A stretch of 64,000 nt of DNA from a virus, in the IMG/VR virus record IMGVR_UViG_3300020048_000044, positions 32,001 through 96,000 of that record; one strand, given 5' to 3'. Under the pieces are notes generated by a model. The model was given only the letters and a program-made list of their open reading frames with translations, made no database searches and was not told the origin of the DNA. This document shows positions 1,746 through 45,705 of this stretch, piece after piece. The translations under genes were made by a program, and so were the position numbers. The first letter of the stretch is position 1. Every line of letters begins with the position of its first letter.

Positions 1746-1776
1746 TATCATACTAATCAATTAATACTTGTCAGTT

Positions 1777-2034
1777 ATGAAAACAATCACATTTAAAGGA
1801 AAAGAATATCCAACAAGAACATTTAACGTTGTATCTGAGGGTATTGATACTCAAATAACAATAGCTACTGATTCATTGTCAGAAGCTTTGATGAATGGTA
1901 AGATTGAGGATGGTGAAGCCATAGATAATGAAATCTACTTTTATGTAGAAGATGAAGTTATCCTTTTGTCGGGAGAAGAAATCTGTAAAGAACATTTGGA
2001 TATCGAAATGGAATTTATATCCGAAGAATTGTAA
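1777..2034 (+). CDS. hypothetical protein
   Basis: ATG after promoter leader. Confidence 0.75.
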   Translation: MKTITFKGKEYPTRTFNVVSEGIDTQITIATDSLSEALMNGKIEDGEAIDNEIYFYVEDEVILLSGEEICKEHLDIEMEFISEEL

Positions 2035-2037
2035 TCT

Positions 2038-2346
2038 ATGGATAATAACATTCATCATACACTCCTTGACATGGATGATTTGTATAGAAGACTATCACAT
2101 AGTCAGACATACTATTATCTAATGGGTTTGAGACAAATTAAACATGATGTTGGTCAAACCAAGAGTTGGTTGGAAACTAAACCAAGAACCCTTAGAAATG
2201 AGGAACTTTTATATCTTTCAAATAAAACATTATACTACGTTGATAGGAATATCTATACACTAGAAAATGTCTTAAGATGCTTTGAAACAAAGGTATATGA
2301 AAAACGCACATTATTCAATCGATTTGAAACACTTTGGTTAAACTAA
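2038..2346 (+). CDS. hypothetical protein; its stop codon lies in the first AAC box of the cassette array
   Basis: ORF track; AACTAAC at 2341-2347. Confidence 0.7.
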   Translation: MDNNIHHTLLDMDDLYRRLSHSQTYYYLMGLRQIKHDVGQTKSWLETKPRTLRNEELLYLSNKTLYYVDRNIYTLENVLRCFETKVYEKRTLFNRFETLWLN

Positions 2347-2448
2347 CGGTTGGCAATATGAAACGGTTGCCTAATAAGACGTTTCAAATTTAGTAATAAC
2401 TTGACGGCAACTGTTTTATATTGCTTTAGGTAAAGTAATTTAATTATC

Positions 2449-2661
2449 ATGAAAAAAATAGTAGTAGCTTATTGGAAAGAACGTGATTTAATACCTTACT
2501 TTGAACATAACTCTGAATTTGAATATTCTGTTGAAAAGCAAAGTGAGATAGTAAATATAATAATTGAACGAGGACTATCAGTAATGGTAAGACCTAATAT
2601 AGGAACGTATCAAGATACTTTGCTGATTTATATAGACAAAGGTAGATTTGGACAGTCTTAA
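2449..2661 (+). CDS. cassette ORF 1, hypothetical
   Basis: between elements 1 and 2. Confidence 0.75.
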   Translation: MKKIVVAYWKERDLIPYFEHNSEFEYSVEKQSEIVNIIIERGLSVMVRPNIGTYQDTLLIYIDKGRFGQS

Positions 2662-2765
2662 ATTGTGCCTAACGGTTGAGGCTAAACAATCGTTGCTTTT
2701 CGCAATGTTGTTTTAGCCTGTCTTAGTGGGGCTTTAGCCTTTACAGTTAAATTATTAAAAAAGAC

Positions 2766-2996
2766 ATGGTGATAAAAATAAACAAAATTTATAGAAGCAA
2801 AACAAGCAAGTATAAGATTGTTGAAAGAATTGATTGTGAAAATAATCCTTGTTATCACATTAAATTAGGATATAGGGGAATTTTATATCGTTGGGGTGAA
2901 TTACCAATTCATTACACTTTAGAAGAGGCTAAAATAACAATTCCTAATTTGATAGAATTAGATAAAGATAAACAACGATTTTGGTGGCTTTTTTAA
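2766..2996 (+). CDS. cassette ORF 2, hypothetical
   Basis: between elements 2 and 3. Confidence 0.75.
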   Translation: MVIKINKIYRSKTSKYKIVERIDCENNPCYHIKLGYRGILYRWGELPIHYTLEEAKITIPNLIELDKDKQRFWWLF

Positions 2997-3078
2997 TAAT
3001 TTAATTGCCACTAACGGTTACATATAACTGGTGTTGCCATTTTGAAATACAAATATTAAATTAAAAACAAATATAAAT

Positions 3079-3294
3079 ATGAAAGTAGAAATTAAAATAA
3101 CAGACGAAACTGGCAATGTTCAGTTATATGATGTTATACCATCGTTGTTTACAGAAGAAGGTATTGATAAAATTTTTGCATTTAGTGATGATGTACATTA
3201 TTTGGGGGATTTTATAGATGAAAATAATTGTAAAATTATGAAAGAAGGTGCAAAAATTTTATTACAAAAAATATTAAAAAACAATGTGGTATAA
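3079..3294 (+). CDS. cassette ORF 3, starts inside element 3
   Basis: N-terminus GNVQLYDVIPS is encoded by the hairpin arm. Confidence 0.7.
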   Translation: MKVEIKITDETGNVQLYDVIPSLFTEEGIDKIFAFSDDVHYLGDFIDENNCKIMKEGAKILLQKILKNNVV

Positions 3295-3356
3295 CGACTG
3301 CGTGTATGGAACGTTGCTTACACAGAACTTAATTAGAAACACTAAATTTTAAAAAT

Positions 3357-3569
3357 ATGAATAAAAATAATAAAAAAAATGGGCAGCAATGTGCTATACA
3401 CGATGTTAGCAAACGTTATTTTTTAATTAGAAGATATAATTGTGGAACGTATAATCCACAAACACAAAAAATGGATACAGATATTATTGGTATCACTACT
3501 GATGAAGAATATGCTAAAAGCAGACAATCAGTATTTTGTGGATATGAAGAAGTATGGATGCTGTCATAA
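3357..3569 (+). CDS. cassette ORF 4, starts inside element 4
   Basis: N-terminus QQCAIHDVSKRY is encoded by the hairpin arm. Confidence 0.7.
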   Translation: MNKNNKKNGQQCAIHDVSKRYFLIRRYNCGTYNPQTQKMDTDIIGITTDEEYAKSRQSVFCGYEEVWMLS

Positions 3570-3649
3570 TGTTTGCTAACGTAAAATGTATGGTGTCGTG
3601 GCTGCCATTAATCAAAGCCACATAGTTTCAAAACTTAACAAACTTTAAT

Positions 3650-3844
3650 ATGGAAAACGAACTTTCAAAAACCGAGCAGCCATGCACTATACATAGTGTT
3701 ATGCCTCGTTATTCTTCAATTGATATAGAATCTCAAAAGAAGAAAATAAGGCAAAATTTTGGTATTGGTGTAGATTCACAGTATTTGGCTCAATTATGGA
3801 ATCAACTTCATAAAATGCGTGGTTATGTTTCATATCAACTATAA
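3650..3844 (+). CDS. cassette ORF 5, starts inside element 5
   Basis: N-terminus EQPCTIHSVMPRY is encoded by the hairpin arm. Confidence 0.7.
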   Translation: MENELSKTEQPCTIHSVMPRYSSIDIESQKKKIRQNFGIGVDSQYLAQLWNQLHKMRGYVSYQL

Positions 3845-3896
3845 TGAGGCATAACTCGTTGCTAGCCGCAATTTCAAACTTGAAACCACTAGTTAT

Positions 3897-4130
3897 ATGA
3901 CTGAATACGAGCAAAATATATTAGATAGAATATCTCAATTGATTCATGAGGGTAAATTATCAAACGAGTTCTTGGTTTCAAACTTGAAACTATCATGTGA
4001 TTACCTTAATTTAAAGCGATTATCAGATTATGAGAAGGAAACTGGTAAATCAACTCAAGGTCTTAGAAAACAACATAAAGATAAAATCATTAAAATATGC
4101 GATTTTCAATTATTCATTGATAATGATTAA
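3897..4130 (+). CDS. small putative DNA-binding protein
   Basis: HTH-like LSDYEKETGKSTQGLRK. Confidence 0.5.
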   Translation: MTEYEQNILDRISQLIHEGKLSNEFLVSNLKLSCDYLNLKRLSDYEKETGKSTQGLRKQHKDKIIKICDFQLFIDND

Positions 4131-4194
4131 AATAAATTTGGTATTCTCATTTATTATGTTTACCTTTGTCTTCTAATCAATTAATACTTGTACC

Positions 4195-4497
4195 ATGAAA
4201 GGACGCAAAACAATCAACGTAGACAAATTAAAAGCATTTGCCAATACACAATTAGCACGAACTGATAAAGATGCAACAGAAGACTTTAAAAGTGGTATAT
4301 GCGTGATGTTAGAAAAGGCTTTACACTTGAGTGGAAACTATAAAGGATATAATGACCTTTATTGGATTGAAACTGGTGCTAATGAATGGAGAACCATTGG
4401 CAACGAAACTGAGGTTTGGGAAGTAAAAAAAGATTATATCTATGGTACTCCCGATAGCAAATATCATGGAAACAAATTCTCTAGATTGTATTACTAA
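4195..4497 (+). CDS. hypothetical protein
   Basis: ORF after promoter. Confidence 0.8.
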   Translation: MKGRKTINVDKLKAFANTQLARTDKDATEDFKSGICVMLEKALHLSGNYKGYNDLYWIETGANEWRTIGNETEVWEVKKDYIYGTPDSKYHGNKFSRLYY

Positions 4498-4509
4498 AAA
4501 AGAAATCTC

Positions 4510-4947
4510 ATGTCATTAAAGAAAAATAATTCAGAATTACATATCGAATGGGAAAATGATTTACCTAAATTCGAGGAACCAAAAAAGATTAAAACAGTTG
4601 CAATTGTAGGCAATGTTGGTGCTGGTCATAGTTATGCTATACAAAGTGTTATGGAAGGTTTAAAAGTTATTGAAACACCAGTTGCTAGTGTTAGTGCTAC
4701 CACAAGTGATTCTTACTTAAACACTAGCAACTTTTTATATACTAACATGTATGAAGGGTTGGATTTTCCATCGATGTATAATGAACCGAATAAGTTACAA
4801 ATGCTTCGTAATTTAAACCTAACCAAAGAACAAATTAGGTCACTGATTGATTCGCCAAATGCAAGAATGGAAGACGAGAGTCAAGAGGACTATAAGGTTA
4901 GACGAATGTTGTATAAGCTTTATTTAAAATATCGAGAAGTTTTGTAA
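4510..4947 (+). CDS. hypothetical protein
   Basis: ORF track. Confidence 0.75.
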   Translation: MSLKKNNSELHIEWENDLPKFEEPKKIKTVAIVGNVGAGHSYAIQSVMEGLKVIETPVASVSATTSDSYLNTSNFLYTNMYEGLDFPSMYNEPNKLQMLRNLNLTKEQIRSLIDSPNARMEDESQEDYKVRRMLYKLYLKYREVL

Positions 4948-11153: not shown

Positions 11154-12215
11154 ATGGAATTCAAAACTAAAATTAAGAATTTAGGTGAACGTGTATTAAC
11201 CTTAAAAGACCAAGTACAAACTGAAGAAGCAACAAAAAATGCTTTTATAATGCCGTTCATTCAAGCATTAGGTTACGATGTTTTTAATCCAACCGAAGTT
11301 ATCCCCGAATTCACTGCCGACTTAGGTATCAAAAAAGGTGAAAAAATTGATTATTCCATTTTCAGAAATGGTGACCAAGTAATGTTGATTGAATGCAAAT
11401 CTTGCAATGAAAATCTAAACGTTCATGAAGGTCAATTGATGCGATATTTCCACGTATCGAAAGGTAGAATTGGCTTACTGACCAATGGTATCGTTTATCG
11501 TTTTTATTCTGACCTTGTTGATGCCAACAAAATGGATGAAAAACCATTCCTAGAGTTTAACATCACCGAAATTTCGGACAATCAAATTGATGAATTGTAT
11601 AAATTCCACAATTCAGTATTTGATATCGAAACAATACTTCGTAATGCCAGTGATTTAAAAATCATACATGAATTGAACTTATTGGTTAAAGCTGAGTTCA
11701 CAACACCTAGTGCTGAGTTTGTTAAGTATTTTGCTAAACAAATCTATACAAGCAATGTAACACCGAAAATCATCGACCAATTCACTAGTCTAGTTACTAG
11801 AGCAATTAAAAATCATACCAATGAAATCATTTCAATGAAATTGAAAAATGCTTTAAATGATGTTAGTATAGTTGAAAGTGTTATCGATGTTGATGTACCA
11901 ACCTCAGAGATTGATGCCGAAAATAAAATTGAAACTACCGTTGAAGAATTGGAGGCTTTCATGATTATCAAATCAATTCTAAGACAAAAGATTGATATCA
12001 AAAGACTTAGCTATCGTGATGCACAGAGTTACTTTGCGATTATTCTTGACGATAACAACAGAAAAACAGTCGCTAGGTTGTATTTCAATGGCAAAAAGAA
12101 ATATATTGCGTTTTTAGATGAATCTAAAAAAGAGCAAAAGATTGAAATTCAAAGTCTTGATGATATTTTCACTCACTCTGATTTATTTTTATCAAATGCT
12201 GAAAAAATAAATTAA
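11154..12215 (+). CDS. HsdR N-terminal (type I REase-like PD-(D/E)xK) domain protein
   Basis: TEEATKNAFIMPFIQALGYDVFNP.EV.PE...KKGEKIDY...IECK. Confidence 0.85.
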   Translation: MEFKTKIKNLGERVLTLKDQVQTEEATKNAFIMPFIQALGYDVFNPTEVIPEFTADLGIKKGEKIDYSIFRNGDQVMLIECKSCNENLNVHEGQLMRYFHVSKGRIGLLTNGIVYRFYSDLVDANKMDEKPFLEFNITEISDNQIDELYKFHNSVFDIETILRNASDLKIIHELNLLVKAEFTTPSAEFVKYFAKQIYTSNVTPKIIDQFTSLVTRAIKNHTNEIISMKLKNALNDVSIVESVIDVDVPTSEIDAENKIETTVEELEAFMIIKSILRQKIDIKRLSYRDAQSYFAIILDDNNRKTVARLYFNGKKKYIAFLDESKKEQKIEIQSLDDIFTHSDLFLSNAEKIN

Positions 12216-31432: not shown

Positions 31433-32317
31433 ATGAAAGCAAAAGCAAATGAAATTTTAGCTAATCACGAATTAGATTTTACAATTGAAAAAGAACAATT
31501 AATTGGTGCTGTTAGTGGTAGGGAAACACCATATTTTGGATTGTTCAATAACAGTTCAAATGAATGTATAAACACTGTTAAAAAAGGTTATACTGTATCA
31601 CAAAACATTGATGTAGTAGAATTGGTATTAATGGGTATTGAGCCATTTGGTGATAAATTAACAGTTCAAAAAGCTGGTAGTTTGAATGGTGGTAGAAAAG
31701 TATTTTTACAATTAGCAATTGAAGGAAATGGAATTGTAGGTAATGACGTTATTAAACGTTATGTAACTATTATTGATTCAAATGACGGTTCAACTTCATT
31801 ATCAATTGGAATTGGTGATTTAACAATGAGTTGTTCAAATCAATTTTTCAAGTTTTATAAACAAGGTGAAGCTAAATTTAGACATTCAGCGAGCCTAACT
31901 GAAAAAATCAAAGGTATTCCAAGCCTTATTGAATTGGCATTAGGTGAAAGCCTTAAACAAATTGAGTTGTATAAACAATTCGTTTCAACTGATATTACCA
32001 AAGACCTTGCAAATCGTATGGTAAAACACGTTTTAGGTTATGATAGGGAATATACAAGTATGGACGAGTTATCGAAAAAATCTACAAAATCCATTAACAT
32101 AATGGATAAATTGTATAATCATATTGAACGTGAAACAGCCGACAAAGGTTTAAATCTTTGGGGGTTGCATTCTGGAGTAACAAGTTACACAACCCACGAA
32201 ATTTCAGTTCCAAAAAGACATAATGCCCATATTGAAAGTTCATTGATTGGTTCAGCTTATAAAATGAACAATGACAGTTTAGGGTTTGTTACAAAACGCT
32301 TAGCCTTAACAGTTTAA
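31433..32317 (+). CDS. DUF932 family protein
   Basis: Y.V.QN...AGSLNGGRKVFLQL...DSNDGS.S...MSCSNQF...LWG. Confidence 0.85.
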   Translation: MKAKANEILANHELDFTIEKEQLIGAVSGRETPYFGLFNNSSNECINTVKKGYTVSQNIDVVELVLMGIEPFGDKLTVQKAGSLNGGRKVFLQLAIEGNGIVGNDVIKRYVTIIDSNDGSTSLSIGIGDLTMSCSNQFFKFYKQGEAKFRHSASLTEKIKGIPSLIELALGESLKQIELYKQFVSTDITKDLANRMVKHVLGYDREYTSMDELSKKSTKSINIMDKLYNHIERETADKGLNLWGLHSGVTSYTTHEISVPKRHNAHIESSLIGSAYKMNNDSLGFVTKRLALTV

Positions 32318-44278: not shown

Positions 44279-44352
44279 AGCTTATTAGTTCAATTGGTAG
44301 AACGCTAGAGCCGAAACTCTGGATGTTACGGGTTCGAATCCCGTATAAGTTT
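44279..44352 (+). tRNA. tRNA with non-canonical 8-nt anticodon loop (GCCGAAAC); identity uncertain
   Basis: AGCTTAT/ATAAGTT acceptor, GTTC-AATTGGTA-GAAC D-arm, ACGGG-TTCGAAT-CCCGT T-arm. Confidence 0.8.
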
Positions 44353-44398
44353 CAACAAATGTTTTTTCATTGCATTTGTTATTCTGTATTTTAATGTT

Positions 44399-45198: not shown

Positions 45199-45705
45199 GT
45201 TATATCCAATTTAAGAAACGATTATACATTCCTCATCGTAATCATTAGTTGTAAACTCAATACACGATGATTTTTTAATCATTTCTATTGCTTTTGCTAT
45301 ATTTTTTGAGTGTTCAATAGCCATTTTCTTTTTTTCTAATTCAATTCCAGAATAATAATCTTTCCACGCTTTCCTGTCTTTTGAACACTCATAGCAGAAT
45401 AAATCATTATAATCATCTTCATTCCCTCTTTTTGATTCATAATGTTCGACAATTAAATAATATCCTTTTATTTCTTTCTTACACGTTTTACAAATCATAG
45501 AACCGCACTTGCACGATTCTGAATTTGTTATTTGAGTTGATGTTCCGTATTTTCCCATAATTAAATAAAAACTGGCTATAACCAGTGGTATAGTTAATTG
45601 CCGTGTTTGTACTAATTTGAAGCGTTACCACCCGCTTGTAATTCTGTGTATTTTGATATGGAAGTAGCCCGCATTAGGCAACTAACCATACCACCAACGT
45701 TATTT
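45199..45705 (-). mobile_element. attC-like cassette carrying ORF 45211-45558
   Basis: hairpin element 45574-45705; flanking boxes GTTATAGCC and GGATATAAC (8/9 complementary) on - strand. Confidence 0.6.
45211..45558 (-). CDS. cassette-borne Cys-rich protein
   Basis: CKCG..CKTC..CYEC. Confidence 0.7.
   Translation of the reverse strand: MGKYGTSTQITNSESCKCGSMICKTCKKEIKGYYLIVEHYESKRGNEDDYNDLFCYECSKDRKAWKDYYSGIELEKKKMAIEHSKNIAKAIEMIKKSSCIEFTTNDYDEECIIVS

Follow-up and report, generated by a model that had tools for sequence, protein, structure and literature searches.

Integrons and clusters of attC sites lacking an integrase (CALINs) are arrays of short, mostly single-gene cassettes, separated by imperfect hairpins that are bounded by ..AAC and GTT.. 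and that vary in length through their loops. Reviews list Bacteroidota among the phyla with integrons. A hairpin of single-stranded phage DNA is also recombined at the attP site of CTX phage, where the host XerCD acts without the integron insertion; unlike in a cassette system, however, the whole filamentous phage integrates at dif, and there are no cassette arrays. The ability of integron integrases to recombine folded single-stranded hairpins is ascribed to a helix that is a special insertion of these enzymes (PMC7790495). For phages, Qi et al. 2023 described 17 attC clusters lacking an integrase, one of the carriers being Polaribacter phage P12002L (PMC9892861). In T4-type phages, conserved intergenic stem-loops, the promoter/stem-loop cassettes (PeSLs), flank small variable genes in plastic regions (PMC2839356, PMC4122927). 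The present study concerns a 64,000-nt stretch of viral DNA (hereafter the window), which covers positions 32,001–96,000 of the IMG/VR record IMGVR_UViG_3300020048_000044 (121,733 bp, 29.6% G+C, estimated completeness 34%). Positions 2347–3854 of this window probably represent a row of five small gene cassettes, belonging to an integron-like system of Bacteroidota and their phages. A preliminary description had proposed an integron-like array of attC-like cassettes at this place, which is partly confirmed here: the observation was largely right and the reading right in kind, with the system being a non-classical variant. The literature searched returned no description of the site family, of its Xer-like recombinase, or of inverted phage cassettes.

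The array contains five homologous intergenic elements (E1 to E5, positions 2342–3703, + strand) that follow one common plan, i.e. TAAC, 4–5 nt, an arm of 18–24 bp, a loop, the complementary arm, 1–3 nt, and (G)TTA. The loops measure 5, 34, 60, 66 or 70 nt. E1 (2342–2430) has its TAAC at 2344–2347 and its arms at 2352–2371/2406–2425, with a 34-nt loop, followed by TTAGG. E2 (2668–2727; TAAC 2670–2673, arms 2679–2696/2702–2719) is a short-loop form with 5 nt between the arms and TTAGTGG behind them, and by eye it closely resembles P12002L_attC1. The remaining three carry a complete GTTA: E3 (3010–3138) with TAAC 3012–3015, arms 3021–3044/3105–3130 and GTTA 3133–3136; E4 (3290–3410) with TAAC 3292–3295, arms 3301–3324/3380–3402 and GTTA 3405–3408; and E5 (3575–3703) with TAAC 3577–3580, arms 3586–3605/3676–3694 and GTTA 3698–3701. 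An anchored hairpin scan of the entire 121-kb record returned these five elements as its top five matches. When the arms were scored against those of the other window elements as wrong partners, each arm fitted its own partner only (own-arm scores of 31–42 versus 11–24 across elements). The single geometry claimed in the preliminary description is thus borne out, as is the decay of GTT in the first two elements: the core of E3–E5 reads TAAC and GTTA, that of E1 and E2 TAAC and TTA, with the G missing. The right edge of the array (3846–3894, + strand) consists of an intact end box, GAGGCATAAC, and, behind it, a degenerate site with a short TTGC/GCAA hairpin and GTTAT at 3890. This sixth site (3852–3894) is a remnant only.

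The relation of these elements to other hairpins was assessed with a covariance model, R1, built from 45 bacterial and metagenomic elements with the window sequences left out. R1 found E3 (49.8 bits, E = 1.5e-9), E4 (46.5 bits, E = 8.9e-9) and E5 (31.3 bits, E = 3.3e-5). E1 was a weak match (21.1 bits, E = 2e-4) and E2 a marginal one (10.6 bits, E = 0.064), the E-values of these two referring to a search space of 1.8 kb, and the sixth site (3.2 bits) was not significant. The window sites belong to a family of attC-like hairpins of Bacteroidota. On other phage records R1 gave 32–105 bits, mostly 60–105; as the window sites score below most of these, they are diverged members. A pattern search showed that several phage relatives of Polaribacter phage P12002L carry members as well, and E3 is about 74% identical to a hairpin common to two phage records (G002 and G005). 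A stricter, 24-base pattern matched at least 120 species genomes, almost all of them Bacteroidota, and at least 120 metagenome contigs, the genomes including Flavobacterium, Chitinophaga, Sphingobacterium, Pedobacter, Hymenobacter, Cytophagales, Saprospiraceae and Bacteroidales. The matches listed provided 240 loci, and all counts for bacterial arrays given below (elements, pairs, polarity and neighbours) refer to these. They comprise 337 elements in 199 of the 240 loci, in arrays of up to six. The stem shows covariation: in the R1 alignment of 45 members, 18 of 18 stem pairs show double-sided changes, with 238 such cells compared to 84.5 in shuffles. No Rfam family matched the hairpin sites.

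The spaces between the hairpins are filled by five open reading frames (ORFs) of 64–76 aa on the + strand, none of which belongs to a known family. ORF1 (2449–2661, 70 aa) lies in cassette 1 (2347–2672) and ORF2 (2766–2996, 76 aa) in cassette 2 (2673–3014), within TTAGTGG at 2723 and CCACTAA at 3008. ORF3 (3079–3294, 71 aa), ORF4 (3357–3569, 70 aa) and ORF5 (3650–3844, 64 aa) occupy cassettes 3 (3015–3294), 4 (3295–3579) and 5 (3580–3854), respectively. Hairpins E1 and E2 precede the ATG of their ORFs. In ORF3–ORF5 the ATG (3079, 3357 and 3650) is situated inside the hairpin loop, that of E3 being preceded by an A-rich leader, so that GTT forms codon 19, 17 and 17. The preliminary description had placed a GTT box before each ORF, which is incorrect for cassettes 3–5, and the junction at GTT does not hold either: the bacterial arrangement puts it at TAA|C, on the 5' side of the hairpin, and therefore each ORF including its start codon lies within one cassette. 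At E1 and E4 the TAA of TAAC doubles as the stop codon of the preceding ORF. Searches of PHROGs and Pfam gave no above-threshold family for the ten ORFs of 1768–4944, the five cassette ORFs included, and a 229-aa protein neighbouring the array had no relatives among viral contigs.

The cassette ends follow a pairing rule: the sequence behind a GTTA is complementary to that in front of the following TAAC. The box pairs of cassettes 3, 4 and 5 score 33.5, 32.5 and 33.5, compared to 9–24 for boxes of other window elements taken as wrong partners, and they form end stems of 15–17 bp or longer (3133–3150/3279–3295, 3403–3419/3566–3582 and 3698–3732/3821–3855). Pairs of the type TTA-N..N-TAA occur at chance frequency genome-wide, and the significance of the boxes therefore rests on their anchoring beside the hairpins. 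Cassette 2 contains, in addition, an inner inverted repeat of 23 nt (91%, 2744–2766/2985–3007). Beyond the window the rule is obeyed by nine of nine cassettes from other phage records, in each of which a single G.T occurs, and by 101 of 136 adjacent pairs in the bacterial arrays, compared to 1.8% of random pairs, where at least 7 of 10 variable box positions had to be complementary. In these 101 pairs, positions 1–9 of the end stem are always paired, position 10 in half, and positions 12–14 are paired, while position 11 is never Watson–Crick and has G opposite T in 88. The same G.T at position 11 is seen in cassettes 4 and 5 of the window and, with a 1-nt bulge, in cassette 3; it is absent in cassettes 1 and 2. 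Bacterial cassettes span 356–6864 nt. As a separate observation, the sites of L084, G003 and G005 share a motif, approximately GTC.TC.TA, some 10 nt ahead of the end box and have a T-rich run behind the start box; conservation of the site may therefore not stop at the 14-bp end stem.

The most frequent neighbour of the bacterial sites is a tyrosine recombinase of about 370 aa, present at 16 loci. Among the 15 loci with detected sites, 14 have it encoded upstream of the array, in the same direction as the cassette genes. The protein matches the integron-integrase model TIGR02249 only in two pieces (194 bits, cut-off 265) and is collinear with archaeal XerA (5hxy). Compared with IntI4 (2a3v), about 40 residues are missing at the position of the insertion that is special to integron integrases. 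The family recombinase is Xer-like and lacks this insertion (I2 helix region). The preliminary description had inferred an attC-type system served by a tyrosine recombinase; the family is indeed tied to such an enzyme in Bacteroidota chromosomes, although it is Xer-like rather than of the IntI type. Together with the R1 membership and the end pairing, this link bears out the arrangement of attC-like sites as cassettes. Group II introns are known to invade attC sites, with the group IIC introns of integrons targeting attC, and group II intron reverse transcriptase/maturase genes are likewise found inside or beside the bacterial arrays at five loci (L174, L184 and L221 among them).

The family thus shares with integrons the complementary cassette ends, the tyrosine recombinase at one end of bacterial arrays, the group II introns, a cargo that includes methylases and restriction-type genes, and the order of gene before site. 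The last applies to 133 of 135 bacterial cassettes, in which the gene is antisense to the hairpin orientation. Several differences set it apart. The recombinase is without the IntI insertion, the end stems of 13–14 bp are consistently unpaired at position 11, a 4-nt bulge on one side serves as the spacer, and 1x1 mismatches take the place of bulged extrahelical bases. Moreover, one type of site is conserved across a whole phylum, and in the window all five ORFs are inverted, three of them starting inside the site.

On this basis a recombination pathway can be proposed. Each cassette would begin, on the + strand, with a site composed of the C of TAA|C, a one-sided bulge of 4–5 nt, the covarying stem of 18–24 bp, a variable loop and T-GTTA, and would close with a box that can pair with the sequence behind its own GTTA. 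Once such a cassette is circularised, the hairpin and both cassette ends would combine into a single long imperfect hairpin, comparable to an integron attC. The + strand of the window would correspond to the bottom strand of bacterial arrays, with the canonical crossover G|TT equivalent to TAA|C. Folded as single-stranded DNA, it would be the substrate of a Xer-like tyrosine recombinase acting at the conserved TAAC/GTTA cores, with the enzyme coming from the host or from those two thirds of the phage that are not sequenced. The data show the family membership, the end pairing, the covariation, the strand bias and the recombinase link in bacteria; such chemistry, and its past action in this phage, we infer.

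Comparison of related hairpins revealed modular breaks at the sites. Between G002 and G005 the identity of the hairpin alone is 95%, and between L084 and L085 it is 93%, the flanking sequences on either side being unrelated. Contig L403, in which three good sites are present, and the window have 93 nt in common that run from the E3 loop to the GTTA at 3136, where the DNA homology ends exactly; the left arm is lost in L403. ORF3 and the L403 ORF at 2428–2634 have a common leader of 19 residues (MKVEIKIT.ET.NVQLYDV, about 89% identity), encoded by loop and right arm, which is followed in frame by unrelated protein bodies. The breakpoints coincide with both conserved cores. In the related pair L100/G001 the differences lie away from the site. 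It is conceivable, albeit rather doubtful, that the phage cassettes constitute a separate pool of reversed polarity, in which the hairpin doubles as a translation start module (A-rich leader, ATG and the first 17–19 codons) and exchange at the in-frame GTT puts different bodies behind a constant leader.

A number of results weigh against the integron-like interpretation of the array. The polarity of the window ORFs is opposite to that of the 133 bacterial cassettes mentioned above. The boxes of cassettes 1 (TTAGG/CCTAA) and 2 (TTAGTGG/CCACTAA) score 17, no better than wrong partners, and the complementary box pairs described earlier for all five cassettes accordingly stand for cassettes 3–5 and are at background level in the first two. 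On either side of the shared hairpin modules the flanks are different, which a single crossover point alone does not explain. The + strand is also the mRNA strand in the phage, so that a strand bias in folding cannot separate DNA from RNA. As the preliminary description had noted, there is no recombinase in the window, and the search of the rest of the record was also empty: the 121-kb record has no PF00589 match, at a completeness of 34%, and five other site-bearing phage records have no tyrosine recombinase. A blastn search of 2000–4300 against the phage collection gave no match, and no close relative of the array was found. The claim that the phage captures or shuffles genes at present is not supported, given that no recombinase is found in the record, that no close relative was detected and that the model scores are low. 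Rather, these low scores, the lost G in E1 and E2 and the dead sixth site make the array look old and partly decayed.

The folding of the two strands bears on the first alternative, namely that the stems act mainly in phage mRNA. Here the A-rich loop would display the start and a long-range helix would close the ORF body, thereby tuning translation or stability of an early polycistronic transcript, and the likeness to cassettes would be inherited baggage. The + strand of the array folds far better than the − strand (−380 versus −303 kcal/mol, a difference of 77 kcal/mol), and in its minimum-energy fold the five arm stems are all present, together with three of the end stems. The ten window stems, scored strand-neutrally, contain 179 Watson–Crick pairs, 20 G.T, 2 A.C and 7 other mismatches, i.e. 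a 20:2 preference for G.U over A.C on the mRNA strand. An ATG with an A-rich leader is found in the loop of E3–E5 and of many phage members, which also fits a role in translation. However, bacterial stems have the same bias (G.T:A.C of 39:14, in addition to a nearly invariant G.T next to the core) on the strand that is antisense to the genes. As this is not the mRNA strand, folding of single-stranded DNA is favoured over mRNA structure as the selected property. The end boxes, moreover, pair across 0.35–6.9 kb, which is implausible for mRNA structure, and invariant TAAC/TGTTA cores, together with a position 11 that is consistently unpaired, suggest that the sites are recognised by a protein and not through pairing alone. 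A mainly mRNA-based function is therefore regarded as unlikely, although the stems may have an added RNA role in phages.

More improbable is the view that the hairpin is a miniature inverted-repeat transposable element (MITE) inserting at TA (TA|AC...GT|TA) and moved by a transposase in trans, the gene segments being ordinary DNA between insertions. Several features of the hairpin module are in line with this notion: a unit of about 125 bp, with inverted repeats of about 25 bp as its ends, is 93–95% identical in unrelated contexts and bounded exactly by TA..TA, and elements common to Bacteroidota hosts and phages have been catalogued generically as MITEs (PMC11602168). The module within TA..TA is 95% identical across two phages, but TA is self-complementary. 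Insertion at TA cannot yield the complementary flanks of successive copies that were observed in 101 of 136 pairs, the oriented arrays adjoin a tyrosine recombinase and not a transposase, and the five window copies all differ from one another.

Marginally less probable again is an assignment to bona fide integron attC sites, served by a classical host integron integrase and forming a phage-borne CALIN. The geometry and the size range of 57–129 nt fit attC, and CALINs in virulent phages are on record, with some of the sites recombined by IntI1 (PMC9892861). Those phage clusters resemble the present array in having attC-like sites between small genes and methylase genes, in virulent phages without integrase (PMC9892861). 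They were treated as classical attC, however, and the report contains no Bacteroidota-wide family, Xer-like recombinase, end-pairing rule or inverted polarity (PMC9892861). The asymmetric spacers (4–5 nt versus 1–3 nt) do not suit a classical attC, nor does the recombinase, given the missing insertion, the split TIGR02249 match below cut-off and the collinearity with XerA. P12002L_attC1, the look-alike of E2, was predicted by HattCI only and is the one site without a verified IntI1 recombinant (PMC9892861). The absence of the insertion in the recombinase and this failure with IntI1 argue that the array is not a classical attC/IntI system. Our hairpin scan of P12002L detected further look-alike sites, and as R1 gave no site at E <= 0.01 on this genome, they are considered diverged. 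The last and least probable alternative, regulatory repeats that promote gene shuffling by ordinary homologous recombination as the PeSLs of T4-type phages do (PMC2839356, PMC4122927), would match the modular breaks at the repeats and the recurrence of intergenic stem-loops among the small ORFs of a variable early region, but PeSLs rely on sequence identity and general recombination, for which the window copies are too dissimilar (cross scores of 11–24), and have no counterpart to the cassette-specific end complementarity or the link to a dedicated recombinase.

The integron-like reading has implications beyond this phage. The cassette logic of integrons is seen throughout a whole phylum and its phages, although the enzyme that accompanies it is Xer-like and lacks the special insertion. 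If the mechanism is true, the integron-specific domain was not needed for cassette capture to evolve, or is not needed for it to work; a large pool of mobile genes in Bacteroidota probably escapes the standard integron finders; and virulent phages would share this pool with their hosts. The methylase and restriction-type cargo bears on phage–host conflict. The window offers a decayed phage example with inverted polarity, and raises the question of the role of a site at the 5' end of phage genes.

Further candidates related to the array were considered and set aside. Exact 16–18-mers of the E3 and E4 arms match nine viral contigs, which are regarded as chance matches because none has a family site or wider similarity. 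GTTA-NNN-GCTG was evaluated as a lipoprotein signal peptide, but hydrophobic residues are lacking upstream and members differ in the frame. An array of invertible segments with heterospecific sites is at odds with the uniform orientation of 133 of 135 bacterial cassettes and with the fact that only cassette 5 has an open antisense frame.

Outside the array, the window encodes a nuclease at 11154–12212 (+ strand; 353 aa, HSDR_N/PD-(D/E)XK, phrog_4225) with more than 500 relatives in viral contigs. Through a homologue of this gene we identified contig L002, which has three elements of the same plan as E1–E5. Its hairpins bound a restriction-type nuclease gene (2796–3878, in a 1.2-kb segment) and a pair of an EcoRI-like methylase and a GmrSD/HNH gene (2.5 kb), the cargo genes are antisense to the hairpins, and the end boxes match at 13/14 and 12/14 positions. 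The nuclease gene of the window was rejected as a cassette, as it has no flanking cassette-type repeats, unlike its L002 homologue.

A lone cassette of the same family is located at 45199–45704 on the − strand. Its site (45577–45704) scores 40.6 bits with R1 (E = 2e-7), and its ORF (45211–45558, − strand) encodes a Cys-rich protein of 115 aa. The end boxes, GTTATAGCCAG and ..TTGGATATAAC, are paired at 12 of 14 positions with a G.T at position 11, and the downstream site is decayed. The cassette lies in a small island of minus-strand genes. A tRNA-like gene is predicted by ARAGORN at 44279–44353 (+ strand), its two-base anticodon being undetermined.

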